In this document: one piece after another, positions 5,189 to 52,700 of the stretch | Layout: the number at the start of each line of letters is the position of its first letter | Numbering within the stretch: position 1 is the stretch's first letter | Virus record (IMG/VR): IMGVR_UViG_3300021255_000136 | Location: 1-64,000 of that record | Reading direction: 5' to 3' (one strand) | DNA: 64,000 bases | From: a virus | Taxonomy: Duplodnaviria; Caudoviricetes | Position numbers and translations under genes: made by a program | Notes under the pieces: generated by a model | Databases searched by the model: none | What the model was told of the DNA's origin: nothing | The model's input: only the letters and a program-made list of their open reading frames with translations

Positions 5189-5539
5189 TTATCTGTGTCT
5201 CTTCAGTACATCTGCAATATCAGCCAGGGTGTCTATGTCCTTCTCCTCCATGCCTCGTACTGTGATCATCAGACGGGTGGTGGCAGGAGATGGAGGATCA
5301 TTTTGTCCACTTGTGGTCAAAAGTCCGGTGAGTATATAGGACTGGGAGACTTGGTATATCTCGCAGAGTGCGGCCAGTTGTTTAGCCATAGGGGTACTTC
5401 TGTCCGCTTCATAATTAGCAAGAGTACTTCTGGGAACACCGGAAATAAATGATGCGTCTTCCTGCGTGAGCTTCATTAGTTTCCTTGCATTCTTTAATCT
5501 CTCGCCAATTGTACTGCCTTGTACTAACTCGTCGTGCAT
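5189..5539 (-). CDS. XRE-family HTH repressor (ImmR-like)
   Basis: IGERLKNARKLMKLTQEDA...STLANYEADRSTP; GAGGAGG SD before ATG 5539. Confidence 0.9.
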   Translation of the reverse strand: MHDELVQGSTIGERLKNARKLMKLTQEDASFISGVPRSTLANYEADRSTPMAKQLAALCEIYQVSQSYILTGLLTTSGQNDPPSPATTRLMITVRGMEEKDIDTLADIADVLKRHR

Positions 5540-5592
5540 CACTGGCCTCCTCTCTTGTAACAATAAAAAGTTGAAATGTAATCTTTTTGTTG

Positions 5593-5631
5593 TTGAGATC
5601 TGGACATTCCTCTGCTATAGTCTTGTCCAGA
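5593..5631 (+). promoter_or_regulatory. sigma-A promoter for the antirepressor with inverted TCTGGACA/TGTCCAGA operator halves
   Basis: TTGAGA-N17-TATAGT with extended TG; TCTGGACA 5599-5606 and TGTCCAGA 5624-5631. Confidence 0.7.
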
Positions 5632-5682
5632 GTCAAACATTAAATTGTTGTGCTCAGAACATTAGAGAAAGGAAAGTTTGGT

Positions 5683-6501
5683 ATGAAAAAAGAAACGGCA
5701 GCAAGCAACGACATCGCTATCACAACGATCCAAGGTGTTGATTGCTATGAAAGTAATGGGGTAGCTTATCTCCGTCTGGAGAATGTAGCTCGGGGTCTTG
5801 GGTTTACTCAGAAGCAGAAGATTAATGGGGAAACTTATGACAACATCCGCTGGGCTAGAGTGCGGCAGTACCTCGAGTCCTTCGGAGTTCTGAGCCCCGA
5901 AAGCGCTGATCCCTTTCCCGACTACATCCCCGAGAACATCTTCTATCGTCTGGCAATGAAGGCAAAGAACGCTACAGCAGAAGCGTTCCAGGCGAAGGTA
6001 GCAGACGAGATCATCCCCGCTATCAGACGGACCGGTAAGTATGAAGCGAACCAGTCAGTGTCCGATGCAGTAGAGATCTCCGGTCCATTCCTCAGGCAGC
6101 TGCGGGAGAGGAAGGGGTTGACGATAGTTGATGTGTCCAAAGCGACTGGGGTTAACTACTATAACCTCGCAGGATTTGAAAGAGGTAAAGACAAGAGGTA
6201 CTGTCTGTCCAAGCATAAGCGGCTGGTCGTGTACAACTACCTCATGTCTCTTCCGGATGCGACTCTTCCCCGTGTTACCTCAACCCCAGGTCGCAGCTAC
6301 GTTACCTCAGTTCGTAATGACCTGCTCCCGGTTGAGAGGCGCGATTATCCTGCTGGCAGAGTGTCAGTTGAGCAGATCCCCTTCACGATGGAGGAGTTCA
6401 ATGAGCTGATCAAGACGGCAGTAACGAATGCACTGGGTAAGGCTCTGTGTGATGCAATGACCCAGATCATTACTGAAGTACAGAACCGGAACCGTCAGTA
6501 A
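5683..6501 (+). CDS. Bro-N phage antirepressor fused to an XRE-type HTH
   Basis: YIPENIFYRLAMKAKNATAEAFQAKVADEIIPAIRRTGKY (Bro-N C-terminal motif), then LRQLRERKGLTIVDVSKATGV...FERG. Confidence 0.85.
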   Translation: MKKETAASNDIAITTIQGVDCYESNGVAYLRLENVARGLGFTQKQKINGETYDNIRWARVRQYLESFGVLSPESADPFPDYIPENIFYRLAMKAKNATAEAFQAKVADEIIPAIRRTGKYEANQSVSDAVEISGPFLRQLRERKGLTIVDVSKATGVNYYNLAGFERGKDKRYCLSKHKRLVVYNYLMSLPDATLPRVTSTPGRSYVTSVRNDLLPVERRDYPAGRVSVEQIPFTMEEFNELIKTAVTNALGKALCDAMTQIITEVQNRNRQ

Positions 6502-6845
6502 TCCGTAGGTGGCTTGGACTTCCGGAGAGCTTCGATGATAGCACGGGCCTGCTCCACTTCTTCCTTGGTTGCGCCTTGGAGAGTCTGGAGTAGAGCTCTG
6601 TGCTCCGGAGGTATGTTGTCCTCCAGGATATCATCAGTGTATCCGAGGAGGTAGTCCAGTGTGCAGTGGAAGTAATTCGCGATGGCCTTGAGCGTGTCGT
6701 ACCCAGGCTCCCGTCCGAGATTCTCCCAGCCATTGACAGTGCTGCGAGGGATATGCAAAGCTCTGGCTACGTCTTCCTGCGAACGGTGGGCATCTAGTCT
6801 TAGCTCTTTGAAAATGGTAGCGAAGTCTCTGTCATTCTTTCCCAT
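6495..6845 (-). CDS. second XRE-family repressor (CI-like)
   Basis: FKELRLDAHRSQEDVARALHIPRSTVNGWENLGREPGYDTLKAIANYFHCTLDYLLG; AAAGAGGTG SD. Confidence 0.9.
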   Translation of the reverse strand: MGKNDRDFATIFKELRLDAHRSQEDVARALHIPRSTVNGWENLGREPGYDTLKAIANYFHCTLDYLLGYTDDILEDNIPPEHRALLQTLQGATKEEVEQARAIIEALRKSKPPTDY

Positions 6846-6885
6846 TCGTAGCACCTCTTTCTTCAGATTATAATTAGATCATTAT

Positions 6886-7026
6886 TGACTCAAATAGTGT
6901 AACACGTACTGACTCAAAAAGCAACAACAAATTACAAAAAATTTAAAAAAGAAAGACTCAGAAAAGATCAAATTTCTTGTTGCTTTTTGAATCACCCTGT
7001 GCTATAGTATGACTCAGAACGAATCA
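6886..7026. promoter_or_regulatory. divergent control region with TGAYTC-N5-GARTCA operator sites and a rightward promoter
   Basis: Sites at 6886, 6910, 6978 (inverted) and 7010; TTGCTT-N17-TATAGT at 6980-7008. Confidence 0.7.
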
Positions 7027-7072
7027 AGCGATTGATCTCAACGAGAACAATCAGTGTGAAAGGACAAAAGCA

Positions 7073-7294
7073 ATGACAGTAATACAGGCGATACTCTTCG
7101 CGGTGCTAGGACTTGGAGCCGCAGCGTTCCTTGCCAGTAAGTACCGGAAGACGTACGAGTACATGAGCAACGACAGGTACTGGGAACCGAATGACTGGTA
7201 CCAGACCGAGCCGGGGATGAGCGATGACAGATTGTTCAAGTACCACAAGACCCAGATCCAGTACATCGATCCGAGCCAGACAGAGTGGAGGTAG
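7073..7294 (+). CDS. small membrane-anchored protein (73 aa)
   Basis: N-terminal hydrophobic helix VIQAILFAVLGLGAAAFLA; AAAGGA SD. Confidence 0.7.
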   Translation: MTVIQAILFAVLGLGAAAFLASKYRKTYEYMSNDRYWEPNDWYQTEPGMSDDRLFKYHKTQIQYIDPSQTEWR

Positions 7295-31752: not shown

Positions 31753-34700
31753 TTATTTGCGACGGTTGTTCGTGATCTTTTCGTAGTCCGACCAGTGCAT
31801 GTTGTAGTCGAGTTTTCTTCCGTTAGAGGAGGTGGCTCTTGAAGAACTGCTCTGGGCGGGTGTCGTGGTGGAACTCGCCTGGGTATTGGGCGGGATCACA
31901 AACGGAGTGGTCTGGGTGCCGGATGTTCCGAGATCTCTGGTGAAGTCCAGAGGCTGGCTCATCCAGCGGTTGAAGCCCCAGTTCGGATCTGCCTTATTGG
32001 CGCGATCCTGTTCGTCAGAAACCTTCCTGACGATGCCGAAGTCACGAGCCGTCTGGTTACCGGATGTGGACATACCGGACTTGTGCAGGCTTCCTTCGAA
32101 TGCGGATGCGATCCTGTCGATCATAGCCACTTCCTGATCATCAGTAAGATACTTGGAAGTGAACGCATCGAAGTTCTGCTCCATGTAGTCCATGTATGCT
32201 TCAACACGGTGTGCGCGTTCAACATAGCTGAGAGTGTTGTTCTTTACACTTGTACCGACTTTGCTGGTGTAGCGCTGTTGCAGGAGATCGAACTGCTCCT
32301 CTCTCGTCAGCTTGTCGTTGAACAGCATGGAGAAGAACACATCGTTGCGGCTTGCTGTAACGTCGCGCTTATCTTCATAAGGTATGCTGTTATCGATAAG
32401 CCACCTTGCGTACTTCCCTTCCTCAAGCTTGGCTACAGCATTGTCTAGATCACGGAGAGCACCGGCCTGTTCGTTGAAGGACAGAGCCTTGAATTCGGCG
32501 CTGTTCATCATCTGGATAGCTACATCGATGAATCGCTCCTGTTCATGTCTTGCTTCTGTGTTCTTCTGGTCTGTACTGAGTACCATCTTGTGCCCGATCT
32601 GATCCGGGTTGTCAATGCTGGACGCGCCAGTCATCTTCCCGGCCATCCACCTGACCTGCTCTTCAACAGTAGAGAAGTTGTCCAGCGCGATCTGGTATGC
32701 CTCGGTCCACTTGTATCCGGCCTTTACATCCGCCAGCGCTTCGACTGCGTACTCATCAGCGTCGTCTTCGATGAAGAAGTCTCCATCCTCTCCGGCCTGA
32801 TCAGCGGTCATAGTGAACTGCGTCTTCACCTGCCCGGTTGCAGACAGATTTCGTGCGAAGGCTTCTTCGACCTTAGATGCTGTCGCATTGAATCGGGCTG
32901 CTACTATGGCTTCCCTATCTTCCTCGGTCTCTGCCAGACGGTAGGCGCTGGAGTTCAGGGTTTCCGCATACTCCTTATCCCATGCAGCAGCGAATTCCTT
33001 ATCGAGGTCTCGCTTCTGTGCATCGGTGAGGTTAATGACGAAGCCCTTCTTGTCCGGGTTGTCGATCTTGCTCGGTACAGCATAACTGTCAGCGAGGTAA
33101 GCAGCCTGCTCTGCAACAGTTCCGTCCATGTTGATCGCGACATTGAACTTCTCCTTACCAGCCTGGGATGCTCTGCCAACTTCCATAGCCCTGCTGGAGT
33201 TGTCCAGTATCTCGCTGTACCTCTCCTTCGTAGTCTCACGAGCTCTGTTGTAGGCGTCGTTGATAAGATATCCGCGCTCACGATCATCGGCCTCAGCATA
33301 GTCCTGGCTGTTCTCCAGCTTACGCATCTCTGCTCTGATCTCTTCGTTGAAGATGTCCCGCATCGCCGCCTTGTCCTCATCGGTTATCTCATAGACATAC
33401 CCGACGTTGCCAACACTGGAGAGCTCTCTCGGAGGAGCGAACTCTGCTGACACCATGTCAGCTATCTGCTCGGTAGTAAGGCTCGGAGTTACGGCCAACA
33501 GCTGGAACAGATCGTCATTGGAGTAGGCATTGGGCAGGTTGTACTTCGTGGTGATGTAGTCTGCCGCACCAACCTTCAGTGCTGTCTGCTTGGTCATATC
33601 CAGTGCGTAGTGATCAGATACCGTGTGCCGTCCGAAGTCTTTAGCGATATCGAACGCCTGCTGCATCATAGCCAGCTTCCCTGCGTCGTCTGCCTGGATG
33701 TACACCGGATCGGTCATAACCTCGAAGCAGATCTGGTACGCAGCGCTACCGGCTACTTTCATCAGCTGTTCGAATTCTTCAGCCGTGAGATCCTTCAGCC
33801 CCTCATCCGTTTTGAAGCTCTTGGACAGTTGTTTCGGGATTATGCTGTTATCTCCGGTGGCCTCGTACAGTCTCATGAGCTCTGCGTCTACCGGAGTCTC
33901 GTTGATCACGTTGGCATAACCAGGCGACAGGAAGTTCTCCAGTGCTCTGAGGAACCAGCTGTCATTAGTATCCGTACGGCCCCACGCATCGACATATGCC
34001 ATCTTCTGACTTGCCCAGCCGGGTACCTTGCTCTGGATCGAGTTCTGAACGAACCGCTGCAGAGCTCCGGGCATCGGGCTGTTCTTATCCGTATAGGTCG
34101 CCCTTCTATCCGGGTCTGCCGTTCTGGCGATCTGGCCGAAGAATGTAGGCATACCCTGGGCGAAGTAGCTCGTGGTCATTGCCGCCAGCAAAGCGGAGAT
34201 ACCGTTGACATCAGAGCTGTAGGCCAGTGAGGACAGCGTGTTCTCGAAACCATCCAGCATGGACATTGCCAGCATAGGATCCGCAATACCCATCAGTGCT
34301 GTCCACAGATTGGACGGGGTACTGAGATCAACCTGGCCGCTGACGAGATTATAGATAGTCGCGCCTACGAACAGCGGCATCGACATCGGTGCCATCCAGT
34401 CCATAGTGTAGCTAACTTTCTTCCCGTCTACTGTAAACTCCACTGCCCAGTTCTGATGGCCTTGGAGTTTTTTCATCTTATCCTTATCATCGTCTCCGGT
34501 CCCGCCACCACGGAGTAATCCTGCGGAGGCAAGTAATGCACCGAGGATCATGACGCCGGTACCGGTAAGTCCAGCTGCCATGTTGTCAAGGATCTGCATG
34601 GTGTTGCCGTCGCCATTCTTCAGTGCCGCCTTCAGGTCAACCAGGGACTTGATGAATCCGGGGAGTGAATACTTAGCTGCGCCCAGTACGAGGATGTTGG

Positions 34701-37700
34701 CCGGGGTGCTGACGAACGGTAACAGTCCTTCCATCAGTACGTTGCCAATAGGTCCGGATGTACTCTTGAACCGGTTCAGTGCCATAGCGAAGGTGTTCAG
34801 CTCATGGTAGGTATCACGCTGGGCCTGCATCGTCGCGTACTGTCTGGCCTTGTTTAGCATCTCTCTGCCTTCTCTGGTGTTGAAGATCGTCGGTTCTTCA
34901 GAGTTCTCTTCGCCTACTTCCATAGCCTTCAGGAGATCTTCTTCAGATACGCCCTGAGCCTGTAGTGCTTCTGCCAGTGCTCTGACATAGTAGCGCTTCT
35001 GGAATGCGAAGTCAGATTTCTCCAGGAACTCGCCATTCTTCTTCGACAGTTTGTCAAGTGGAGCCCAGCCGAAGATGTCGCGCTTGTTCAGGATATCACT
35101 GATGTCGTTGAACTTGTTGCCAGTACGCTTGCCTGCTACGACGTCTTGCATAGTTGCGTAGTCGCGCTGTGCAAACCGGACATAGGTGTTGTCGGACTCT
35201 TTGCCAAACAAGCCTACCCAACCGGTAAGTTCAGCACCGGGTACGTGCATCTTGTACTCGGGGTCAATAATGCCGGGGATCTGTTCAAGACGTCGCAGGA
35301 TAAGATCTTTCATGAACACTGCGGGCATGAAAGCTGCATTACCAACGAAGTTCCTTATGTGGGTTCTCGGATTGCCTAGCATCGCCAGATATCTCCAAGC
35401 GTTCCACTTATCCATGATCGTTGCGGGGATCTGGTCAGCAATATCTTTCTTGATCAGTTCCATGATATCGCTGATCTCCTGACGGCTTGTTGCGGCCATC
35501 AGTCTCTCTGCCAGTTCCTGGTTCAGAGTGATACGCTGCATCTTGTTCTTCGGGTTTTCTATCCTCTTTGCATACGTTGCATTCAGGTGGTTGATAACAC
35601 CGTTGATGTAGTAGAGCTGGCCTTGCGGTGTCGCCTTCTTAATAATCGACATCGCCTGTACAGCCTGACCTAAGTTGGTACCCAGGATAGACAGATCGGC
35701 TGCTACCTTGACTGCCTTATCATAGGTGTTAGGATCAGAGCTGAATTCCTGGATGAGGAGTTCTGCCAGTGCGATCCACTCAGCTCTCGGCAGTTCACCA
35801 CTCTCGACCATTGCGCTGAATGTGTTCATTGCCTGATCGAAGTTGCCGTTGAAGCGATTTGAAAGAATGCTACGCGCCAGTCGGATAGACCTTGCGTTGG
35901 ACTGAGGGGTATATCCCAGCAGCTCATTTGTCATACCTTCATACAGCATGCGCTCGGTGAGGTGTTCGTTCTCGACGTTTGCCGCTACGGTCTGCATGTG
36001 CTTCCGCACAGCGGTGTTGTCAGCGGACTTCTTCGGGAGATGTACATCATCCTTCTTGTCGCCTCTACCTTTCGGGAGCTTGCCGTACTTCTTTATAGCG
36101 GAGTCGATTGCTTTGTGGAGTTGTTCCTTCTTCTCCTCGGTCAGGTCGTCGGCGTAGTCAACTACACCCTTCAACCGTTCAAAGCTGTCGGCCAGAGCCT
36201 GTGGTCCGTTCCGGTTGACATACTCGTTAACGATGTCCTCCAGCTTGAACGGGTCGTTCTGGTTGGCGTTGAGCAGGTAGTTGTACTCGAAGGAGTTGAT
36301 CGGGAACGTGTCCAGTGTGGTGATCTGCTGGCCGCTAGCGTTGCGGAAAGTGAAGGTCTGGTCTCCTGTTGCGTTCTCCCTCATCGGGTTCTCGAAGCCA
36401 ACGGAGAATTGTTTGCTTACACCTTCCTGCGCTTCACTCTGCGGTTGACTCTGTTCATACAGTTCTCCATTGTCTCCTGTGCGTCGAGATGTTCCTTCTT
36501 GATCCTGCGCAGGAACTTCTTCCGTTCCTCGTCGTAAGCCAGCATCCTGTTCACGGAGACGATATCCAGTATCGACATCCCGATTTGCAGGAGGTATTGT
36601 ATAAGGTTGCGTTGTGGTTCGGTCAGTACTGTTGGCATTGTTCATCGCCTCCAAATAATTGATGTATTGTGCTTCGGGGGAATCTCCTCCTACGTTCTCC
36701 ATGACCACCGTCTCACCAGAGTCGAGCTGGTAGTATGCGGTATCGTCGGAGTAGTACAGGTTCGGAGAAAGTTCGGACTGAGTAAGGTCTGTTGGGTTGG
36801 TGTTGGAGATTTCAACTTCATCGCCGAATGCGTCGTAGGCAGCATTGGGGTCGATGGAGAGGGAATAGCTACCAGCAACCCCCCAGGAATTTACGGTATT
36901 GAAAATTGCGTCTCTGGAGTACTTCGGCGCATTTCTCCGCCTACGTTCGGCTCCCCATTCCAATCTGCTTTGAACATCTCTGGCCTCGATTTCTCCGGCT
37001 GTATTCCTATAGAGATCGTAGTCGGAGTCATTTTTGTGAGACCGGTTCCTGCTCTGGGAAAGATCGTAGTTACTCAAGAAGTCTGCTACTTCGCCGAGAC
37101 CATACTCGCCTATCGCCCACAGGAGCTCTTTCTGATAGTCCTCGCGCTTTTTCTCATAGTATAGCTGGCCATTCTTCTGGAAATCCTGCAGCGTCAGATG
37201 AAGCATTTCGTTGCGGGTTTCTGCCATAGCATAGAGCCGATTCAAGCCATCTGCTGGGATGTACAGTTTCATGGCTTCTAAGGCTTTCTTTGCACGGTCC
37301 TTCGGTGTGTACGGCACTCGTTTCCCGTTTACGTCGATCTGGTCGTCCCAGGCTTCGAGATTTGAACCGCTCGCAAATCCTTCCATATACTGGATAGCGT
37401 GCTGTATTTCATGCATCAATGTACTGCGTACGTCTCTCTCGGCCTCTGATAAATACCCGACGAGGTCATCAAGAGCAATTGTGATCGTGAAGCTGGAGGG
37501 ATCAAATTCGCCGCGTACATTACTCGGCATTTCTGTGAAAACAACGGTATAGTTTTTAAGGTCAGGATAGTTAGCAAATAACATCCCGGCGTTTCTTAAA
37601 ACTTCTGGGAGCTTATACTCGGACCTGTAGTTTTCTGCGTTACCAAGAGAACTTTGTATAGCCGCGTTCCATTCCTGATCAAGTACAGCAGGACGTATGG

Positions 37701-40700
37701 TAAAGTCCTTATCATAGATCTCCCACTTCCATTTGCCGTCAACGCCACGGAACCATCCAGTATCTTTCCAGATTTCATCCCGGCTGTATCCAGCTATTTC
37801 CCTCTGCTCAGCTGATTCGAGTTTACCGAGATCAGCGCCTTTTGCAGCTGGGCCAGCGAGGCTAAATCTTTTCTCAATTCTGTCTACTTCATCGCGGACA
37901 GCTTGAGCGCTCTTCCGTTCTTTCTTTGCCGCATCTCTTTCAGCTTTAGTCTGATAAGAGTACGGGAACGGTTCAAGACCTGCCTCTTCACGAGCGGCGT
38001 TTACTTCAGAAAGATATTTTCTGTAGTTAGCTTCAGATAGCCCTGTACCAGTAAGGTCAATTGGAACGCCAACTTCCTGAAGAGCAGAGAGCAAACCGGA
38101 AGGTACAACATTGAAAGGCACACCAAGACCGGGTGCTTCCCTGTCGAGGATCTCCTTGTACTGCTGGGCAACTTCGATGTTGGACAGCTTACGTACCGGC
38201 ATGAGCCACCGAGAAAGATACACATGTCTTTGTGTGTTTTCTAACTGGCTTGCTAGGGAGCCGCTCTTCCAGTCGTGCATACCAACAGCATCTTTTGCAG
38301 TAACAATATCTCCGTCAGAACGAGTTGCCTTTTCAGGATCTGTTACACCGAAGTGATAGCCGCTGGTCAGCTCACTCTTTGGAATGGCGCACATATACGT
38401 TACCAGGTTGGGACGTTTGTACGCAATGGAGAACTGGTCATTGAGAACTACATCGCTAGAGTGCTGGTACGGGTTATACGCAGCCGGTACCACGGAACCA
38501 TCTACGTCGCTCTTCTCAAGTCCATAAGTCCAGGATACTTCACCGGTCTTGTCATTGACTTTCTTACCGAGGCTCTTGGAGTTTGGATTGCCTACTGACT
38601 CTTCCCACACCCCGGGACGGAGAGCATGCGATTGGCTCTTCTTGCCTGTCTCGTCTTTCTGCACACCGGCCATAGGAGCAATAAGATATGGATCTCCGTT
38701 CTCGTCTTCGTACTCAAGGAATGATTTGTATGTGTAAACCACATCACCGTTCTCGAGCTGATCGTTAAGGAAGTTCAGCGTATCTGGATCGGAAACAGCG
38801 ATGGAATACATCGGGTCCATGTCACGCTGTTCAGAAGTTTTATATCGGTCTATCCTTCTATTATCTTCATCAACAGCTTCGTTCTTAGCTGCTATCTGCT
38901 CGTCGTCGAGGAACTGGTTCGGTATATACTTCAAGAAATGCCCGTCCTGAGGATTGACATTTTTAAAGATATCTGCTATACTATATGTAGCTGATACCAG
39001 GGCCGATGCAGGAGTCTTAGATTCCTCCGTCCTCCCCGTGACGTCAGCTTTTATTTTTGCCAACGCGACGGTCATATACAATTTGCCTCCATCATTGGAG
39101 GTATTTTTTATTTCAAATTGTACTGGGACGAGGCTGTTCTCATCTTTGAAAACACTAAGTAAAACCTTTGTGTCTATTAGATTTCGGCTTTCTCGTTTCG
39201 TACCGGCGTATTTATCCGTATGCGCTTCAATTAGAACTGCCGAATTTAATAAGTCATCGATGTTGATTAGCGCTTTTGCAAAGTCTAAGTAAGTCCCGCC
39301 TGTTCTGAGTTGCTTGTGAAGACTCTCCCTTAAACCACCGTTTTTAGAAAACAGAAATTCGATTTCTACTTCAGGAGAGGATAAGGCCCGATTTAGTATT
39401 CCAAGCTTTTCTGCTAACGGATAAATGACTTTCTCCGCTCTGCTCTTGGCTATACTCTCTGCTTCCAGCTCGCTAAGTTCTTCTGCATAGTCCTGAGATT
39501 TTGTATCGACAACAGCAGTAATAGTACGGTCTTTAAGTTCCTCGTAGCGCTCATCTTCGGTCATCCCGGCAGATATAGAATACTGCTTATTGACACCCTC
39601 ACCGTCTTGTGGTATACTATTATTCGACGCTATGGGGTGCCGGGCGAACCAATCTTGGTTTTCGCCATTGAAGTCGATGTTCGGATTATTTCTGGATGTC
39701 GGCTGGAACGCGACTCCCACGGCGTTATTTTTTTGCATCATTGCATGGTACAAAATACTACGACCGTCATCAGCTTGCGCTATGCTCAGGATTACAGGAT
39801 ATATATTCTGCCTGTCCATGACGTAAGCTTTTCTATATTCAAATCCGTTCCTATCCATCCACTGGTGGTTCTCTCTCGGGTCGGTGTCCTGCTCGGAATA
39901 GCCCTCGAACTTGGAGATCTGCACTACTTCCGGAGCGTTGAGGTAGACCATACGAGTCGTGCGGTTCCTGCCTCTACCATACGTTAGCTCTGTCAGAGGA
40001 TGGTGCGCGTTGCCATGCTTTGATACGTCCTTATCTTTGGCATCTGCAAATACAATAGTCTCCGGTACGCCGTAGTCGGATACTGTTCCGATCTCCATAC
40101 CAGCGAAGTTATTCATAACGAAGTTATTAAACTCAGCGTTTCTGAAGTACCTGCTCTTGAGGTCAGTATCCATGTAGACAACTTCGTCATAGGTCTGGCC
40201 GTTAACGTCTACAACATTCTTTGCGACGGAGAACCGCATATCTCGATTACTATCATCAAATCTCTGAGACAGAGGAATAATATTGCCGTCGTCGTCATAT
40301 GTGACTGCGTCGGCTCTTTTTATATTCTCTGCGTTCAGCATGATGTAGGACTCGTTACCGGCGTCTTCCATCTCATTGATGTACCGGATGCTGTCGTAAC
40401 CCAGACCGAGTAAATACTTCTGTGCGGACAGGTTGGCGATTCTTCCGAGGTCATCGAGATCGTCGTCCGTCACTGCCGCGCCTTCAAATTCGCCCTCGTT
40501 GTACAGAGCATCCTGCCAGCGTTGCGCATCCGCTTCGTACTGGTCATACGCCTCGTTCCTTACCAGAGCCTCTTTGAGTTTCTTCGAGTTGGCCTTGGTC
40601 CACTTGGTATTAACAGCGCGTCTCGGAATGTACCCGTCCTCGATCCAGTCATCGACGTCGTCCATCATGTTCTTCAGGGCCATAGGATCGCCCCACACAT

Positions 40701-43700
40701 CCGGTGTACGGAGTGTGTTCTCCATCTTGAGATACACATCGTAGATGCCAGGGTTGTCACCGAGGTTGTTGTACAGGTTGTTGTAGAATGCCTCAGCTGC
40801 AGCTCGCGTACCGAAGTGAACACCAAGTTCGTTCGCAGATATCATACGGAATTCATTGAATCCGAATGACTGCGTACCGTGGAATGCTTCCTTCTTGTAC
40901 CCGGCTTTCTTCGCTGCCTTCTCTACCATAGCCTGCGCTGTTTCCATGTCGTCGCTCTTTACAGCGTCCATGTACTGCTGGTCGGATTTGCTCAGGCTGT
41001 ACTGCATACCGGGGTGCTGCTCCTTATACTGGGCAACGAACTTGTCTACGATACCGTGGGCGACCGGGAATACGTTCGGGTTCTCGTCGTAGCTGTTGAG
41101 CATACGATTGACCTGATCCATATTGAAGATAGGACGTACCGGCAGCTGGGGTGAACCGTTACCGTTGTTGTCGTACATCTTGAAGTCGATCAGGAGTTTC
41201 CAATACCCATCCGTGCTTCCGTCTTCCTTCAGGGAGTAAGATCCATCCTTATTATCAGTAAGGAACTTGTAGAACTTAGGCCTCTTACCATCCCTTGCAC
41301 ACATCCCGAGATACTTCTCCGCGTTCTCTTTCCCGGACTTACTGAAGTCCCAGTACTCGTTCGGCATGTAGTTCGTGCATTTGGTTGGGACGTCTCTACC
41401 CTGCCATTTGTGCGTGTGCTCTTTGGGATTAAGCCACTTCTCGTTCTGCTGGTATGTGTAGTCCTTTGTAGTAGCCGGAAGGCCCATAGCTTTGTACTGG
41501 GCTTTCTTCCACTGGCTGCGATGGAATGGAATAATAAAGTCGATCCGATCATCGGCCAGAGCAGCAAGCAGCTGGGCGTCATCATAGACGCAGCAGATCG
41601 TACCGACGTTCCTCGGGTATGCGTTCCTCAACTCCATAGCTGTGTCGAAGTTCATACCTTCTTTATTATTAAAGACTAATTTACCGTTCTCATCCACAGA
41701 CCATGCGTCAATACTCAGGTTGATCTTCAGCCCTGTATCGCCAAGCGCCCATGCGAAGTCAGGTACTTTCGTGTAGGCCTGACCCTGCAGTCCTACTCTA
41801 CTCATATCCGTTATCACTTGCATAGCATCTATGAGATGTACGATTTCAAAGTCTGAGAAACTTTGCATGCGGATACCGCCGTTCCGGTTCTTCTCCCGGA
41901 TCATATCAGCGTCTTCGAAATGCTGACGGATCTCGCCCTTGTACGCGCTTCTCATCTGGTACAGCTTCGGCTTCTGCTGACTTGCGAACAGGTTCTTGTC
42001 GCCCTTCCGTAACGTACCATAGTGGTTCCAGAAGTACTCGTACTCTTCATATACTTCCGGGTGGTTCTGCCGTACCCACTCAATACCGTCCGGTGTATTC
42101 ATCTGGGCCATGTTCGGTACCCACTCACCCGGATGATATTTCTCGTACAGCTTGAGGAACTCCTTGGTGAAGATGCCCATCGTAGCGCGTGAACCTTCGA
42201 CGTAGCATTTACCGCAGCTTACTTCGAGCCCGGCGTCGTCCATCATTGCCCTGATACTCAGAACATCGAACGGAGTCAGTACGGTATTCGGTAATGCGTT
42301 CTGGATAGCGCTGAACGTACCGGTGAGCAGTCTGCGTTTTTTGCACAGTGTGGTGAAGTCAAAGCTTCCGCCATACTCTGCATTGCTTACGAACGGAGAC
42401 TTGCCGGTGTCTTTATAGTCCAGACGGCCTTTGTCTTCAGCGATCATCTTGGCCACGCTGTTAACGTCATCAACCCACTTCTCAGCCTGTTCGTAAGTGA
42501 CACCGAGCTGTTCGACAAGCGCGGTGATGGCCTTCTCCCTGTCGGTTACGTAGTCGCTTGCGTTCCATGTAGATAGTGAATAAAGTTTATTGGCGCTGTC
42601 ACCGTTCGTCTCTATCTCGGATGCACCGGAGCTGAGTGAGAAGAACATCGAAAGATTGGACACATAGTTCTTCTTCGGGGATGCCGCCTTCTCTTTAATA
42701 TCCATAACGATGGACTCGGGGCTGGTGCTGAAGTCATAGAATGTGGTTCCGTATCCGCCGTTTATCTCAACCGTGAGCTTCGGATCTTTGGCCCATTGTG
42801 AAGAACCCGGCCAGTCCTTGTGCGAGAATACCCACTTAATATAATCGAGTAGCTTTTCACACTGCACATCGGTTAGCTCCGCGCCAGCAGACGCCTCGAT
42901 TGCCGGACCTTCTGCCGCGATACGGACATTGCCTCTCTCGATGAAGTCCGAGCGATAGTTATTGTTATCGGGTAGCAGCTTAACTCCTGATTGTTTATAA
43001 GCCTTTTCGACTGTACTGTGCGTAGCACCACCGGTCCGCATCCCGTTAGGGTTGTTCTTCATCCAAGTGCGCATTTCCTCCACTTCTTCTGCCGGTTCGC
43101 CCATTGCGAGCAAGCTGTCCATCTGCTGGTCAATACCGGAGAAGTCCAGCATATCGCCGTATGGTGTGATGTACCCGCCATAGCAAAAGTATGGTGTGGT
43201 TCCGAAGATCTCAGTGGCCGCGTCTACTACCTTGACTGTACTGGATCTGGTAGAATCTTTCCAATCGTCAACGGAAAGGCTGAAGAACATCGCAAACGGT
43301 GAGACGTACTTCCGTTTGAAAGAACCGTGCTCATAGTAGTAAGCGATCTCGTCTGTTATGTCATCCGCGCTCTGGCCCAGCTTGAATGTCTTGGACTCAG
43401 CATTGTTTCCGTTGTCGTCCATGATATCCACCATGAATGTATCGGAGCCATGTACGCGTCTGTTCTGCTGTGCCCACTCGATGTATTTCTCGATTGTGGC
43501 AAGCTGTTCAGTTGTCGGCGCTGTTGTTTTGAAGAGGTGAACACCCGGTGCTTCAGGCTGCATACGGATGTTGCCCTGCCTCATGAACTCCACCATGCCT
43601 TTATCCTGCATGTTGGTGCCGACGTCGATACCAACAGACTTATAGACATTAGCGATTTCACGATGGTCAACAGTACGGTTTTCCTGGAACTTTTCATACG

Positions 43701-46700
43701 TCTGACGGTCCTGAGGTCTGAGCTCATGGGAGCCGGAGAAGTTAAGCATCTGGCCCTGCGGAATAATGTATCCGCCGTGACGATAGTTAGAGGTGATACC
43801 GAACGTTCTGATCGATGCCATCTCTACCTTGCGCTCGTCTTCTGTAGCGTTCTCGTACCAGTCCTGAGCAGAGGAGATGCTGAACCGGAAGTCAGGATCA
43901 TTGGTCGGGTTTTTGTTGTCCGGGTCCTTGAACTGGTTGGACTCGAAGCCGACAACAATCGTGGCGAGCGTTCCGTCCAGAGTACCATCGTCTTTGCCAC
44001 CTACATCTTCAATGTTTCGGAAGATAACGCCGTCATAGCCATGAGCATGTGCCCAGTTTACAACGCCGTTAGTGGTCATAGTTCCCGGTATGTCTTCTCT
44101 AAACAGGAAATTCTCCTGCTGCTTCGGGTTTCCTATTCTCTCCAGATATGCCCGGATGCCGTCCTTATCGGAGAGTCTACTCCATATTCCGCCTTCAGCG
44201 TCATAGATATACGGATTCTTCAGATTCGCGTATAACGGTCTGTTGCCTCTGGTTGTGAAGTCCTCTACCGTCGGCGGTGCAAATTGTTGTGCCAGTTCGA
44301 TTGCGTCTTCTCTGGACACCATCTCGCCATCGAATTCGAATACGGACTCGTTATTCTCATAGGCGTCATACAGTTCGTCGTAGAGGTATTCAAAGTTATC
44401 GAGTTCTTCCTCGAGCTGGTTCATGATCTTGTCTATGAACCTCTTCAGCGATGGCGCGATTTCTGCAATCTCCGGAAGATGATCCCGTGCAATCTTAGCC
44501 TGCTCGATAACACCTTCGAAATAGTTATCGGCATCACCAGCCGCCGCCTCCATAAGATTCCGTATCCTTTGCGCTGCGTTTAGGAAATCCTTAGAATACG
44601 GGGCCAAAGCCATTAGTGTATCGAGACTGTGTGCGAGAGTATACAGGTTCTCTACATTGTCATACAGTTCGTTCTCGACAAATACTCGACCATAGCCGTC
44701 ACTGTACCCGGTCTCTTCCTCTGCCCTCTTAGCAAGGAAGTCGCCCAGCTCGTTGTCGTCCATTTCCTCTATACCCGGTACCTCAGTCATCTCACGCATG
44801 GGGTTAACCTCACGCATGGTACCTGAGTAAGATCCGGCTATACGAGGATCGTCCACCGCAAAGAAGCTCAGATGGTCTGCCGCCCACTGCGGGTCGAAGA
44901 TGTTCTGGGTGGCGTGTGTAATAGATCCGTGCCACAGCTTCAGCAACCGGCCCAGATTATCTCTGACTCTGGAGCCTTTGAAGTACTCCAGCTGACCTCT
45001 GGACAAGCTGGCACCTTGGTTGTCCTCAGCTACATTATCGCCGTCCATAGTTACCGGCTGGCTAAGACTGTACTGCTTGCCCTTCACGAAATCACTGTAG
45101 TCCTGCGTCTGGGCTGCTTCGGATGTAGCGTATTCTACCAGCTTGTTGTCCAGCTCGAACTTCTGGGCTAGGCGCTGGTATGTCGGCATATCGGACTGAA
45201 TAAGCGAGACACCATGCATCCACGACATTCTATCTATGCCATTTACTAGATCGGCGTACATCTCGTTGAGGACGGCCTGCTCGAATTCCTCTGGGGATTT
45301 ATTGGCATAGGCGTCTTTGTAAAGGCCGCTATAATAGTCGTAGAGCCGGTCGAACAGGGATTTCTTTCCTTTGAAGATTGCTCCTATCGCCTTCTTCAAA
45401 TACTTAGACCGTTCAGCGTCGTTGAGCTTCTTGAGCATCTCGTGGGATATCTCGTGGTGCGCATTCTTAATATCCCTGTTGACGTTAATGATCATGGTAT
45501 CCATGCCGTGATTATTAAAGACCACGCCATCAAACGGAGTTCTATTTATTACCTTTCCGTTCTCGTCACGGATCAAGCTGTATAGACCATCCGCGTCAAC
45601 AAAAAAGACCCGTTCTACGCCAGCGCTTTGTGCGCGGCGTACAGCAGATCTCTCCTCATTAGTAAGTACGGACTCGTCATCCGAGAAGGAATCGTAGACA
45701 ACGAAGCCGTGGTTATATTCTATTGTATCTCTCTTCTTCTCGCCTGACAGGTCGAGAAGAGTTGCGTTTACTCGTCGTCCCCGAAGATCTCGTCCATCAG
45801 AGCTTTCTTCCGCCCCTGATATTCCTTCTCCTCCTCCGCTGTTCTGGGCTTCGGATTCAGCGGATCCCACTTGCCCTGCTGATACAGTTCCAGCTGCTCC
45901 TGAGTCATCGGGATTGACGCTCCGTTCGGCAGGCGTACTATCATTCGGTCGAATATCATTATCTGTTCCTCCATGTCTGGATTGTAGTGTTGCAAGGTCT
46001 TCCTGTGCTGCAGCTAACTTACGCTCCACTTCCTGCAGACGTTCAGCGTTGCCTTTGGGATCATTATATATCCTGTCACGCTCTGATGTCAAGCTAGCTA
46101 TTTCACGCTGTGTGGACTCGACAGTAGCGCCGACATTAGGCACACGGAACGGTTGAGGTGCTGTCTGGGTCTTAGGCGCGGATTTCTTCGACGTGGATTT
46201 CTTGGGCTCGCTTTTTGTGCTCTTCGCCTTCTCTGCAGTCTTGTTCGACGCGGTACGGTCTGGTTTGGTAACGGTGATTCCGTACTCCACTTCCATTGTG
46301 CCAAATGTATCGTTGGCTGCACGGTCCATCATCATATCGAACTGGAGATGCGCCTCTTCTGCGGATTTGCCCTTCGACACCTCGCTCTCGACAAACTCAC
46401 GACGTGTCTTCCACGGGAATGACGGATTGAGACGTACCTTATCCTCCCAGCTTCTGGGATGGACTTCTCTGGCCCCGAGCTTCTTCTCCAGCTCCTCATC
46501 GAGGTTCTTTACCTTCTGCTCTTTGGGGTTCTTCGGCTTCTCTGTGGTATCCGCCTTGTCGCCCTTCTTCACGACTGCAGCGCCAGTGTCAGTACCCTCA
46601 GTCTTGGCCACCCAGTTTATAGCTGCGTTCTGTCCTGCGCCGTCGAGGATAAGTTTAAATTCTTTCGCCGCTACGTCCAGAGTAACATTAGAGTTCTGAG

Positions 46701-49700
46701 CGTGGCGCATATTATAATAAGAGTAGACATTGTAAGTCCTGCGCCCGATCTTTATCTGACGACCGGCCACATCCTTTGCACTCTGCGGTATAGACGCCTG
46801 ATAGGAAGCTATCCTGGTCTGCGGGTCCAGACGAGGTGCTGGCTGTGCCGCCTTGGACTCAGTCTTCGTCGTGGTCTTGGAGGACTGTACACGCGGTGCT
46901 CTATTCTCTGTAGCCGCACCTGGCATTGAAGTATTAGCCGGAGGGATAACGTCCATACGGAATGCTTCGATATTCGGGTTGTTCGTACCACCAAGCTGAG
47001 CCTGTTGTCTTGCCTGCATCAGCTGCGCAAGATTGTCATTTGCATGAACGGGTGTAGGAGTAGGACCATAGGAGCCTTGTGTATACCCCATGGACCTGTT
47101 CATCTGTTGCTGGCCACGATACTCGCGTTCGTTGTTCTGGCTAATACCCGCGCTTCTGGCTTCCCGCTGTTCAATGTTGGCATTAGCAAGACGGAAGAAT
47201 TTCCATGTGTTGTTCAGTACGTCGTTGATATCCCCGGTCTGGATAACCTTCAGGAGATCCTCAGACTGCTGGCCTACCGTATTAAGAATGTAGTTGTAGA
47301 TCGCATTCCTCGTATTGTAGTCCTTCATGAAGTCTTGCGCTGCGAACTCCTGTATGCTCTTATAAGTAATACGAGCAGAACCTTTGAGTATTCCTTCTAG
47401 GAAAGACTGTACATCCGCTGCTGTACCTGCATCCAGACCATATTTGTCATGGAGCGTGGTACCGATATCCGAAAGAACAATACTATTCGGATTTTGAGTC
47501 TTGGCATAGAGGTACGCCATAGACTCCGTATTCTGTCTGGCCTCGTGGTCAAACTCGTTAACAGCGTTGAAGAACCAGTTCGGCATGGTTTTGAACATAC
47601 CCTCGCCGTTCTCGAGGACAATAGCGTTGAACATACCCGGATCGAACTCACGAACCATAAGAGCCAGCTTACCGATATCTCTTGCAATATCTCCGGTCTT
47701 GGCCGTGTTGTTGGCCTGTTGTTGCTCCAGATACTTCAGTCGTGATGCGTCGTTCGGTCGGCTCTGGTTGTTCTTCATCCGCTCATAGATCTCTGCGATC
47801 TCGGCTTGGATTCTAGTACCGTTCTCAGCCACCGCCTGCATTCTACTGTTCCAGCGGTTACGGATGTCCTGAGCAAGTGATGTAATCTCTCTTGCCTGCT
47901 CGCCTTTGTCGAAACCTCTGTAGTCCGTCTCGCCGTTCCCTTCAGTCGGGCCCGGAGTAGGAGTACCTTCTGTGTGAGTTCGTGCAGTGGTTCCTTCTGT
48001 AGCGGTTTCTGTATCGGTGGTCGTGTCCTGCGGGTTCTGTACTCTAAGCGGCTCACCTTTCTGGGTATCGGCACTCGGTTCGCCATTCCGGGAAAGCTCG
48101 GTGCCGTCTACCGTAGACTGTTCCTGCTTGGTATCTTTGCCCACAGAGTATTGCTTGCCATTGCTGCTATCGGCCATCGCTGCCCTGTAGTCTTTTAGAT
48201 ACTGGCGGGCATCGTTTCTCTCAGTTTCTGCCTGCTGGCGCATAGTTTCAAAGTTGCCCATCGCTTCATCTACAAAGCTCTTGGTCTCCGAGTGTTTATT
48301 GAGCTCGTGGAGTACAAAGTCTATGCCGTACCATAGTGTGGCATAGTCGGTTTTTTCGCTTACTCCTTTTTTCCGGTTGCCCGCGTCACCGAGGTCAATA
48401 GTCGTCCCATCGCTGAAATTAATCCAAGCTTCGACGGCTACATCTGTAGGCGCCTTCGTGGCCTTATCAAGTCCGCCATTAAAATATTTCTTACGCTGCT
48501 TGTCTATTTCTTCTCGCGAGAACCCAGATTCTGCGAGAGCACGAAGATCGTATGGGGAATCAACATGAATTACCGTGCCGTCGGCAAGAGTCCATTCGTA
48601 ACCGAAGTTGTTCGAGTTAGTCCAGTGATCGACGTCTTTGGCTTGGTCCATCATACTGAACAGTGCGAAAGCATCTTTAGCGTCATTAAGCCGCGTAAAT
48701 TTATCGGATGCATTATACACATTATTCTGTGCTTCTTCTAGTCCCGCAATCCGTTCTGCTTTTGTCTTTCCGGTAAGATCAATTGGCTTCTTATCTTTAC
48801 CGGGAGCAGACGCGTCTTCTTTGCCGCTATTCTGCTGATCGTCAAATTGTTCCTTCGTGGGGATTACAGGTGTAGCAGGCGCCTCGTTTTGTTGCTCCGC
48901 TTCGGCAACTTCCGGTGCCTGCTCTGTAATCGGACTAGCAGGGGTCTGGTCTACTGATGCTGGCTCAACTGGGGCCGTGGCTTCTTCAGTCGTCGTTCCG
49001 GTTGTTTCACTTGTCGCGCCGGAGGTTACTGACGGGGCATCACTAGTATGCGCGAGAAGGTACTGCATCGCGTCATTGTATTTGCCGCGTACGTCGTTAA
49101 GTTTATTCTGTAGTTTTTCAACCGCTGAATCATACCAGCCATTTAGAATATCGGCGACATCTTTATTTGCATTTCCTATCTTCTCAATGGTCTGATCTAT
49201 TCCGTCTTCTTGTTTATAATTATAACTTGCGACGTACTCTGCCTGAGATTTAAATGTCTGTGTCTTTCCCTTTGCCCCCGCATTGAAACCGGTGATTGTT
49301 CCGTCTCCGTTGTATATAAACGCTCTCGGGAAGAGATGATGTTTATCCCCGTCTGCGAATTCAATGTGGATGTTCTTTCCGTTTGCAAGCTGTTTTTCAT
49401 AGGCCACGCCATTACCAAAGATTGTAGGTACCTTCTTACCCGTTCTTGCAATGGTAGAGAATATTGTCGCAGCTCTGCCATTCTGCTGCAGCTTCTCAAG
49501 CCTATCTTCAAGCCCTGTCTGTTCCTGATTCAGCTTGACAAGGTTGTCGTAGTTCTCGTTATATTTCTGCTGCTCTGGCGTTAGCTCTTCTTTTGTGACT
49601 TCGGGAGCGTTCTCCGATACTCCTTCTGCTTCAGAGCTTCCGTTCTTCACTTCAGCAGCAAGTCCAGCCTTAGCTGAACGGATCTGGTCAGCCATGTTCT

Positions 49701-52700
49701 TGATCGTACCAGTGAGCTCTATGCCGGTGATAGCTTTAAATGCATCACGCAGGCCTTGGTCTCTTGCGATCTCTCTGGCTTCCTTAATAGTAACAGAGTC
49801 CTGCTTCCTGTTGAGGATGGCCTTTACACGACTCTCTTCTTCAGTGTCGTCAGGAGATGACGGGAACTTACCGTTCTCATCAGCCTTTGCACGAGGTATA
49901 GCCAGAGGTTGCTGCTGTTCTGCTCTCTCTTCCCCGTGGCGATTCGGTGCTGGCCCTGTAGGTGTTGTGTTTGCGGGAGGAATAATTGCCGGTGCCTGAT
50001 TCTCCTCGGGAGTACTACCTTCCTGTGCAACCGGTGCTGCAGGAGCAGCGGGTGTTGCATTCGCAGGAGGAATAACTGCCGGTGTCTCAGGTGCTGCAGG
50101 AGCCGCGTTTTCAACTGTAGTCGTCTCCGTATCACCAGTGGTTTCTGACGGAGTATACCCAGCCTCTGCTGCGCGTTGTACAGCAGCAGCCACAGGTGTT
50201 ACGGGAGACTCGGCAGCGTACTGCATCATCACCGGGTCTTTGGAATGGTCTAGAACAGAGTTGGTAAAATCTATACCAAGACCGCTTTTCAGCATATCGT
50301 TACCGATCTGCCTGTACGTTTGGTTGGTCTTGCCTTCTCTTACGGCATTACCGAAGCCCATCAGTGCACCACTGGCAAAACTGTCTGTTACAATGTCAGC
50401 GAGTTTTTTCTTTTCTTCCTGCTTCAGGATATACTCGGCTTCTTCTGGAGTAATGTCAGATTCTTGAAGCAGTTCATTCTTTCTGGTGTGATACTCACTT
50501 CTCTCGCCTTCAATCCACTCCGCGATAGCATTTGTGAGTTTTTCTGTATTGAATTCTTCACTGGCCTCAACGAAGCCGGACGTAGACGTTTTTAATACGC
50601 CGTTAACTATATCGTTAAAGAGCCCGTTACTGGAGAGTTCAATATCCGGGATCTTATCGAATATGATATCAAGGGATACAGCTTCACTAAAGCCATCTGC
50701 AAAAGCACTGGCAAGAGCGTATTGGTTGGCTTTATTTACATCTCCGGTACGTGCAAACGATTCTTGGAATGCATTTGCATAAGAAGCGCCGCCATAAGCC
50801 AGTGTCGTATACCCCCAGGAAATAGCTTTTGCTGCGGCTTCTGTAGCCAGCGCGGGAGCTGCAACCCCGGCAACTGATGCAAGAGCGCCAGCCATGCCAA
50901 CAACGTATGTCGATTGCATAGCACTCTGTAAAGCTTTAGGCAATGTAGCCGCTGAAAGTGTAGTCTCACCGAAGAACGGGATATTAATATTTTTCTGCCA
51001 ATGTTCTCCCAGTTCGCCATAAAGCCCGGCATTAACAGCGTCCATAAGTTCCATAACAGTTGGATTAGCATAAATCGGAACTTCGCCGGTACGTTTGGCC
51101 TCATTATAAAATCCGATTGAATCAGTTATGCCAAAGCCTAGAGCTGTTGGTATACCGGTGACAAATATTGAGCCCAGCAGATATGCCGCTCCAGCCGCAT
51201 CGCCCCAGTTGCGCTTCCCGTCGAACAGATTACCGGCCATTGCTGCGGAGAAGTCCTGTACCGCTTTGACTCTGGCCTCATGCGTTTCACCGTCATGGAG
51301 TCTGTTCTGGTCCTTTGCATACTCGAGAGCCGTCTGCAGCTCACCGTTGCCGATGTAGTAGGCATAGGTCTGTAACTCAGTATAAGACCACGTATCATTC
51401 GGGAGTACGTTGCCTACACCGAAACGCGCTATGTACTGTTCCGCTTCTTTCTTCTGAGTATCGGTCAGTCCAGGGATGACATCCAACAAGCCAGTTACGC
51501 CCTTTAGTTGCTGCTGGTATGCCTGCTGCGCGTTTGGATTGATAGTATCTTGATCGATCCTCTTAGATCCGCGAATAGCCATAGCCAAGTCAGCGAATCG
51601 TTCACCGGCTTTTACTTTATCCTGATAATTCTTATCACGCTGGATATCTACGCCATAAACCCCGTGGCCTTGTTCGTCCACGCCGACCTGTACCTGAATA
51701 CCACGGAAAGATTTCTGATAGCCAAGCTCTTCGTTCTTCTGGTCGATGGCCTTCTGATACTCTGGATGTGCTGCGTCAAAATTTGTCCAGAGCGTATTGA
51801 GAGTGGACTCGTTACCGGATTCCCACCAACTCGAGTTAGGCTTATTTCCGTTGCCAAGAAGATAGTTAGCGTACTCTGTTATAGACTGGTTCAGTCTGGC
51901 GTCGTATTGTCCGGACGCCGCAGTATCAAGCAGATAGTTTGCAAAAGCCTGTTCTCTTTCACCAACCAGCCCGCGATTACCGGAAGCGTATTCCGGATAG
52001 GCTTTAAAGAAGTCCATGTCCAGCTGTTCCTGGAACCGACTATTAAGCCCCTTAGCATTTCCAAGTCCGTGCTCCTCTTTCCATTGCTCAGAGAAGTCGG
52101 TGTAATCCGCGTTCCAGTCATCCATGCTGTAGCCGAGTTCTGCTTTTGTCTGGGCAATTATATTCTCCAGACCACGGCCAGAGTTGTCGCTGATAAGGCC
52201 TATTGCCGAGTTGTAATAGTCACGGGCCTTCTGAGTTTGTAATTCATTCTGGAAGAACTTAGCTCTCTTGGTCTGCTCGTCTGTCAGCTTAGTATCGTCT
52301 TGAGAAGAACTATATTTCTTTTTCTCTTCCAGAACTGCTTTCTGCTGAGCAATCAGATCGTTATAGAGCTTTACGTTCTCGTCATTCGGATCTAGGACAT
52401 CATCTATCTGACTATCCAACGCAACGATCTGCTCGTCAAGTTCGTTATACTGTCGCGTCCAGTATGACTCATACAGGGTGTCGCTGATTTCGTTCTGAAG
52501 CTTATCTCTCGCAATGCGGGACTCGGTGAGCGTGTCGTATTTACCGAAATACTCTCCGGTTTCACGATAATGTTTGGCTGCTTCTGAACGGGACAAGTAC
52601 TGCCATTCGCCGTTCTCGTCTTTAACCATAGCCGGGACGTTGACATATTGCCCGTCGTCATAGACCATGTACGCATCGAAAGCATCTTCCAGCTCGATAT

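Follow-up and report, generated by a model that had tools for sequence, protein, structure and literature searches.

In phage lambda the o-spanin gene Rz1 is embedded within the i-spanin gene Rz (PMC5295617, PMC6139136), and in Bacillus subtilis comS lies inside srfAB, a small gene within a giant modular one (PMC12915044). Overprinted genes of small viruses include B, E and K of phiX174 and L of MS2, and have been reviewed (PMC8227390). The polyvalent proteins of phages and conjugative elements were surveyed by Iyer et al. in 2017 (PMC5512222); the word "overlapping" is absent from that survey, and genes embedded in linkers are not described in it. The present analysis concerns a 73-codon open reading frame (ORF) nested in the +1 frame of a giant gene of an uncultured gut phage. 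The phage is represented by IMG/VR record IMGVR_UViG_3300021255_000136 (81,433 bp, with direct terminal repeats), the first 64,000 nucleotides (nt) of which constitute the window, that is, the whole stretch of DNA that was analyzed. Based on comparison with related loci, this ORF is very probably a genuine embedded gene, translated by internal initiation on the late messenger RNA (mRNA). Its Shine-Dalgarno (SD) sequence, ATG and stop are kept, and it is the +1 frame, rather than the giant frame, that is under purifying selection. The features involved are the following:

31753..55044, minus strand: giant host gene, one uninterrupted ORF of 7,763 codons (amino acids), encoding a predicted polyvalent virion protein
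36417..36638, minus strand: putative nested gene, 73 codons plus TAA in the +1 frame of the giant ORF, with its ATG at 36638-36636 (giant residue 6136)
36417..36638, minus strand: predicted nested product (P0001), 8.9 kDa, isoelectric point about 10, predicted helices at residues 7-18, 23-32, 36-47 and 53-72
36648..36652, minus strand: SD sequence GGAGG, separated from the nested ATG by a 9-nt spacer
36640..36741, minus strand: conserved giant-frame island, 34 codons (residues 6102-6135), directly upstream of the nested ATG
36417..36639, minus strand: giant-frame linker under the nested gene, residues 6136-6209, polar and predicted disordered
36580..36597, minus strand: [IV]IPPAN(R) motif in the overlap, giant frame, invariant in relatives and with nearly invariant DNA

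The giant ORF encloses the nested ORF completely; the two share a strand but not a frame. An out-of-frame gene on this strand, in the +1 frame and with GGAGG 9 nt before an ATG at 36638, had been proposed in a first-pass annotation, and all of its coordinates were verified. Other genes of the phage start with (T)GGAGG 6-10 nt ahead of ATG, which is the same SD context, and the arrangement GGAGG-N5-10-ATG occurs only three times in the 23.3-kb giant gene. Regarding length, the +1 frame of the giant gene holds 11 ORFs of at least 73 codons that begin with ATG (the longest of 141 amino acids), and the +2 frame none of more than 28 codons, a strong asymmetry that makes raw +1 ORFs in this gene poor evidence of genes. 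The nested ORF is the only one of these 11 with an SD-like sequence upstream. The third occurrence of the arrangement (GGAGG-N10-ATG at 39073-39090, minus strand) places an ATG in the giant's own frame, at residue ~5324; an in-frame internal start is possible at this site, which is probably due to chance.

The comparison drew on relatives of the locus from four short ENA contigs, three IMG/VR phage genomes and three other metagenome contigs; sequencing runs from ruminant gut also contain parts of the window. Of the ten loci that were read, all from independent assemblies, eight are non-redundant and full length. One contig (L008) is a chimera that opens with unrelated, AT-rich, DUF969-like sequence, and only its 3' part was used; another (L007) was excluded from the codon counts on account of an in-frame TAG near the contig end (giant frame, ~50 codons upstream). 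Both GGAGG and the nested ATG were invariant in all ten loci, whereas the sequence of the 9-nt spacer between them varied freely; at the SD sequence, the giant-frame Leu codon was always xTG and the Glu codon always GAG in the ten loci. The stop was always found at the same codon, though as TAA in some relatives and as TGA in others. Identity of the nested protein across relatives was 74-96%, with ~52% in the flanking giant frame, and the nested protein of L006, from phage genome G003, is an orthologue of the one from the window (82% identical).

The codon-position pattern of this variation differed between the two frames. Over the overlap, variable sites at codon positions 1/2/3 amounted to 26/13/44 in the nested frame and 45/26/14 in the giant frame. 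Codon columns that were identical, varied only synonymously or changed the amino acid numbered 21, 28 and 24, respectively, in the nested frame and 23, 1 and 50 in the giant frame (73-74 codons), and the pairwise ratio of nonsynonymous to synonymous variation (pN/pS) was 0.25 for the nested and 1.86 for the giant frame. The picture was reversed in the 34 codons directly upstream of the ATG, with giant-frame variable sites of 12/8/27 and pN/pS values of 0.21 for the giant frame and 1.68 for the +1 frame (contingency test on the codon-position pattern of the overlap vs. the 34 upstream codons, P = 7e-6). This reversal of pN/pS between the upstream codons and the overlap indicates that constraint switches frame exactly at the ATG. 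Constraint on the overlapping frame had been anticipated in the first-pass annotation, as had suppressed synonymous variation in the giant frame, and both were observed (a single synonymous-only column among the 74 of the giant frame, against 28 in the nested one). When all six frames were compared, only the giant and nested frames were open in all eight sequences; the other four had stops in some or all relatives, with pN/pS values of 0.46-2.44, and antisense coding was ruled out, the antisense frames having stops or values within this range.

The rest of the same gene served as an internal control, for which four full-length giants were aligned over their final ~1,700 residues (1,573 ungapped codons, 154 windows of 40 codons). 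The difference in variation between third and first codon positions (pi3-pi1) averaged +0.18 over these 154 windows, with a standard deviation of 0.11, and the only strongly negative windows (-0.20) were located at residues 6137-6206, which correspond to the nested ORF. Seven +1 open stretches of at least 50 codons were present in the aligned region. The nested ORF alone was stop-free in all three full-length relatives, while each of the other six stretches had 1-6 stops in every one of them. The homologous linkers keep the SD sequence, the ATG and the open frame, rather than showing stops in the +1 frame or lacking the SD-ATG pair, the pattern that had been named beforehand as contrary to a gene.

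Gene callers picked the nested frame on four short metagenome contigs. The absence of the nested family from protein databases, except on short contigs that cut the giant gene, is explained by the fact that gene callers never report genes embedded in an ORF. In addition, each of four independent short metagenome contigs (L007-L010) terminates 123-153 nt ahead of the nested ATG, where the conserved island has its edge, and it seems that assembly is interrupted at points of divergence between co-occurring strains.

Several points weigh against the interpretation of this ORF as a gene. Its size alone is not beyond chance, the +1 frame being poor in stops. The comparison includes ~8 lineages with 74-96% protein identity, and the substitution counts are limited and phylogenetically non-independent. 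Moreover, conservation at the IPPAN and GLRRGxEEVP stretches may in part be giant-frame constraint. The sole RNA-library contig over the start (220 nt, 36538-36757, from poly(A) RNA-seq) is indistinguishable from DNA carry-over and shows neither ends nor strand. Finally, no homologue, family or fold match points to a function for the product.

In the proposed mechanism, ribosomes initiating internally on the long mRNA of the giant protein would produce the small protein late in infection. No sigma-70-like promoter or terminator was found on the minus strand upstream of the nested gene, in view of which the timing and location of its synthesis presumably follow those of the giant protein.

The two products of the overlap are dissimilar. 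The nested protein is basic (16 Lys and Arg vs. 9 Asp and Glu), and AlphaFold2, run with the eight sequences only, predicted four helices at a mean predicted local distance difference test (pLDDT) value of 72, in agreement with the helices read from its sequence in the first-pass annotation. Residues 30-50 are almost invariant, the sole change being K40T in L009. In the giant frame, the overlap showed pLDDT values of 34-44 and was modelled without secondary structure, and the 80 residues upstream showed values of 58-83; the conserved island is predicted to be part of a small beta-plus-helix domain formed by these 80 residues. The host frame had been described as a featureless polar linker, which held as far as it is polar, predicted disordered and unconstrained, but it is not featureless, as it carries one copy of [IV]IPPAN. 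A dual constraint on the DNA is likely at this motif. A search with the back-translated motif gave four matches in the window (0.04 expected), each of them within the giant ORF:

36583-36597, 46933-46947, 49969-49983 and 50059-50073, minus strand: [IV]IPPAN copies, in low-complexity linkers of the giant, with codons that differ per copy

A VIPPN variant is present close to the C-terminus of the giant protein, and the ends of its relatives carry similar VIPPN sequences; [IV]IPPAN may be a docking or processing motif.

Both the island and the nested gene are contained in an insert confined to the close family, flanked by a peptidase cassette upstream and by the C-terminal module of the giant protein downstream:

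36400..36870, minus strand: clade-specific insert, ~150-157 codons, giant residues 6059-6215, holding the island and the nested gene
36859-36870, minus strand: SYSL junction motif, upstream edge of the insert
36400-36411, minus strand: QFSV junction motif, downstream edge of the insert
36976..37869, minus strand: LPD23 plus zincin-like peptidase cassette, placed by the Pfam LPD23 match and motif positions
37849-37869, minus strand: RFSL junction motif opening the peptidase cassette
37696-37863, minus strand: LPD23 (giant residues 5728-5783), the sole Pfam match in the giant ORF (E 5.3e-18)
37399-37413, minus strand: HEIQH zinc-peptidase motif, giant residues 5878-5882
36976-36996, minus strand: GEIEARD motif, giant residues 6017-6023
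31753..36351, minus strand: C-terminal module of the giant, of which residues ~6232 to ~7232 are common to at least 447 other polyvalent proteins

The cassettes that flank the nested gene are delimited by motifs of the form x[YF]S[LV] (SYSL, QFSV and RFSL). In distant relatives, the preceding cassette ends in x[YF]S[VA] (R[YF]SV at the equivalent junction) and is followed directly by the C-terminal module. Homology with these relatives starts at window residues 6232-6300, ~22 residues past the nested stop, and a search for the segment composed of island plus overlap in 120 distant C-terminal module homologues was negative. In proteins P0008 and P0051, a homologous peptidase cassette (..GEIEARD..) is joined directly to the module, without insert and nested gene, and other distant proteins attach different cassettes to the same module, likewise without the insert. 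The absence of the insert from distant proteins that have the peptidase module suggests that the nested gene travels with the clade-specific insert, and not with the peptidase. The gene would have arrived or arisen with this insert of ~150 codons, the first half of which would be a small folded giant-frame domain. No homologue of the island was found among proteins of 131-2000 amino acids. For both halves of the insert, homologues elsewhere are lacking. This would fit de novo birth by overprinting (PMC8227390), and a previously unknown small gene may also have been captured.

Regarding function, blastn and tblastn searches against 50,697 deposited phage genomes gave no match to the region or to the nested protein, and a profile of the nested protein searched against 5.8e9 and 1.84e9 proteins recovered only the same locus on short contigs, with no stand-alone homologue. 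A match to P0007, limited repeatedly to the charged stretch 36-61, was set aside as compositional. Nothing significant was retrieved for the nested protein from Pfam, PHROGs, NCBIfam, PADLOC, PDB sequences or the ESM Atlas, and no helix-turn-helix (HTH) family was matched in Pfam or NCBIfam. At the structural level, Foldseek gave no match at E <= 0.001 against PDB and BFVD, and the best VIA-align Z value was 6.3, within noise for helical models. Sub-threshold matches, which are not evidence of function, were to the KorB DNA-binding domain (Z 5.9, root-mean-square deviation of 2.5 A over 56 residues), to Noc (template modelling score of 0.50, E 3) and to the P1 ParB profile outside its HTH (E 0.047). 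No Cys occurs in the first 59 residues of any member of the family, and the N-terminus, MPTxLTxPQ, is not hydrophobic; an o-spanin (Rz1-like) identity was ruled out, the protein having neither signal peptide nor lipobox Cys.

As a guess from charge, helicity and context, the nested protein may be a small accessory of the injected polyvalent protein, binding either nucleic acid or the giant protein itself. This last step of the mechanism is much less certain than the others, and each of the two binding partners is offered tentatively, as a plausible candidate that still falls short of being likely. Prediction of a complex between the nested protein and the giant-frame insert (residues 6056-6215) yielded a score of 0.51, compared with 0.02 for the best control, which lends weak support to the second; the runs agreed in at least 63% of contacts, and the pLDDT of the partner was at least 55. 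In a benchmark of the procedure, 58 of 80 solved complexes attained the mark, as did 2 of 110 mismatched pairs; at scores of 0.60 or less, only 7 of the 80 solved complexes attained it, together with both of the mismatches that passed. The score was discounted further because both chains are encoded by the same DNA, so that their alignments co-vary trivially and may mimic co-evolution. In a more specific proposal, which is speculative and on the whole rather unlikely, the insert would be a module in two frames, encoding first a giant-frame docking domain and then a small basic +1-frame protein that binds that domain. If this were true, the giant virion protein would recruit a product encoded within its own gene and would be packaged and injected together with it, and small effector genes would, as a general feature, reside or be born in the disordered linkers of polyvalent proteins.

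A role as cognate inhibitor or chaperone of the LPD23/metallopeptidase cassette had been suggested in the first-pass annotation. The position just past this module is as it was described, with the nested gene beginning ~115 codons beyond the end of the peptidase cassette, on the same mRNA, and a control of timing is conceivable, since polyvalent peptidases are thought to process the chain (PMC5512222). However, P0008 and P0051 have the homologous peptidase end and lack both insert and nested gene. Furthermore, the window and G003 have in common a block of 95% identity that stops short of the LPD23/peptidase cassette on its upstream side, and the nested proteins of these two phages are only 82% identical, values that point to separate histories for the two segments. 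The suggestion found no support, more than 100 distant relatives without the insert speak against a general inhibitor role, and we consider it doubtful.

The hydrophobic character of residues 12-32, followed by a highly charged basic tail, would agree with a small membrane protein resembling a holin or the first transmembrane segment of ExbB (short N-terminus out, one hydrophobic helix, basic C-terminus in), and seven of the eight members weakly match the N-terminal 50 positions of the ExbB model TIGR02805 (best E 0.0027, ~15 bits vs. a cut-off of 135). Yet the maximum Kyte-Doolittle mean over 19 residues is 1.02-1.38 in all members, compared with the usual ~1.6. Halfway along the segment, position 22 is S, P, N, Q or E depending on the member, while D25 is invariant, and in the AlphaFold2 model a turn at G20 divides the segment, leaving two helices. 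A membrane protein of this type is quite unlikely.

Other alternatives concern whether the +1 frame is translated as a separate gene at all. The very high nucleotide conservation, and the breaking of four metagenome contigs 123-153 nt upstream, might be attributed to a nucleic-acid element (RNA structure, or a regulatory, recombination or packaging signal) instead of a second coding frame, and RNAalifold can pair GGAGG with a CCUCC located ~45 nt into the ORF. Such an element is very improbable in view of the 3-nt periodicity of variation in the +1 phase and of the conserved start and stop. The RNA fold did not depart from shuffled sequences (z = +0.40), no covarying pair was detected, and the strand has no promoter- or terminator-like site. 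Sequestration of the SD sequence by the downstream CCUCC was likewise dropped, as the two are paired in the alignment fold without covariation and the single-sequence fold was no better than shuffles.

An ORF that is open by chance in a stop-poor +1 frame, its apparent conservation resulting from selection on the giant frame, would be in line with the 11 +1 ORFs of at least 73 and up to 141 amino acids and with the recurrence of IPPAN in the overlapped giant frame. Nevertheless, it is the giant frame that shows a pN/pS of 1.86 and 1 synonymous-only column in 74, as opposed to 0.25 and 28 in the nested frame; all six control +1 open stretches gain stops in relatives, and the position of the nested stop is kept despite the TAA/TGA difference. 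This explanation is extremely unlikely.

In prfB and dnaX, an SD-like GGAGG upstream of the shift site stimulates frameshifting. A programmed +1 (or -2) frameshift leading to a truncated protein of ~6,200 residues with a 73-residue basic tail would agree with the GGAGG upstream and with giant-frame constraint reaching up to the ATG, but is no less improbable than chance, considering that the window, L009 and L005 have a +1 stop two codons before the ATG, leaving no room for a shift site, that no slippery motif was found and the 9-nt spacer varies freely among relatives, and that the ATG, invariant in 10 of 10 loci, is needed for initiation and not for frameshifting.

The host of the proposed embedded gene terminates a virion operon on the minus strand, which comprises tail-fibre genes, an endolysin-like gene and a 695-amino-acid ORF. 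Judging from its LPD and peptidase domains, its position in this operon and its homologues with ART-PolyVal and LPD domains, the giant gene encodes a polyvalent protein. Its C-terminal module of ~1,000 residues (~6232-7232) contains hydrophobic membrane-like segments and has no Pfam or PHROG annotation. The module is located at the extreme C-terminus in at least 447 polyvalent proteins, and the family of the window carries ~500 further residues. These distant proteins measure 2,700-4,500 amino acids, many of them with ART-PolyVal, LPD3 or LPD23. The giants of close relatives (5,620-6,129 residues) are mosaic, with barely related N-terminal parts and a C-terminal part that is 41-64% identical. 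The largest of them, from G003 (6,129 amino acids), has N-terminal cassettes largely unlike those of the window. The block that these two giants share at 95% identity spans 317 residues (giant residues ~5398-5714; window ~37900-38850; G003:C1:25502-26452), and the remaining C-terminal part common to both is only ~41% identical, which points to a recent swap of one cassette between otherwise diverged phages. In another relative, G001 (locus L014, G001:C1:45328-46194), a single TGA breaks the giant ORF close to where the last ~300 residues begin, and homology resumes beyond it; a sequencing error, a split gene or readthrough could account for this TGA.

The locus represents an unusually clean case, in which the frame under selection changes at the ATG and the remainder of the gene provides the control. 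It would imply that the long disordered linkers of polyvalent proteins, the "injected toolbox" of phages, can carry extra genes. If this were general, the coding capacity of such phages would be underestimated, as would their repertoire of small, possibly host-directed proteins. It also offers a tractable example of a structured protein that coexists with, or was born inside, a disordered reading frame.

Among the described systems, Rz1/Rz is similar in that a short phage gene is entirely enclosed by a longer one, on the same strand, in the +1 frame and with its own start signals. Rz1, however, is secreted as a lipoprotein and cooperates with the protein from its host gene to lyse Gram-negative cells, whereas the nested protein is basic and helical, with no signal peptide or lipobox Cys, and its host gene encodes a polyvalent virion protein over 7,763 codons, to which any functional link would be hypothetical. 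The pair comS/srfAB likewise consists of a very small gene in a distinct frame inside a giant multi-module gene. ComS, of 46 amino acids, is a regulatory protein whose gene is expressed from the mRNA of the giant operon, so that its production is coupled to that of the operon, a coupling that for the nested gene is only inferred; it differs in being bacterial and in acting on the MecA/ClpCP-ComK pathway, and there is no sequence similarity. With the overprinted genes of small viruses the locus shares a dual-coding stretch, a lineage-restricted orphan product and a structured frame lying over a disordered, relaxed one. Those genes belong to tiny genomes under strong size pressure, in contrast to a clade-specific insert in a linker of a mosaic giant gene within an 81-kb genome. 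As for the polyvalent proteins, the host gene resembles them in being giant and modular, in its LPD23 and zincin-like HExxH cassette and in its place at the end of the virion operon. Embedded +1-frame phage genes with their own start signals are already classic, and what the present locus adds to them is a well-supported case that encodes an orphan protein.

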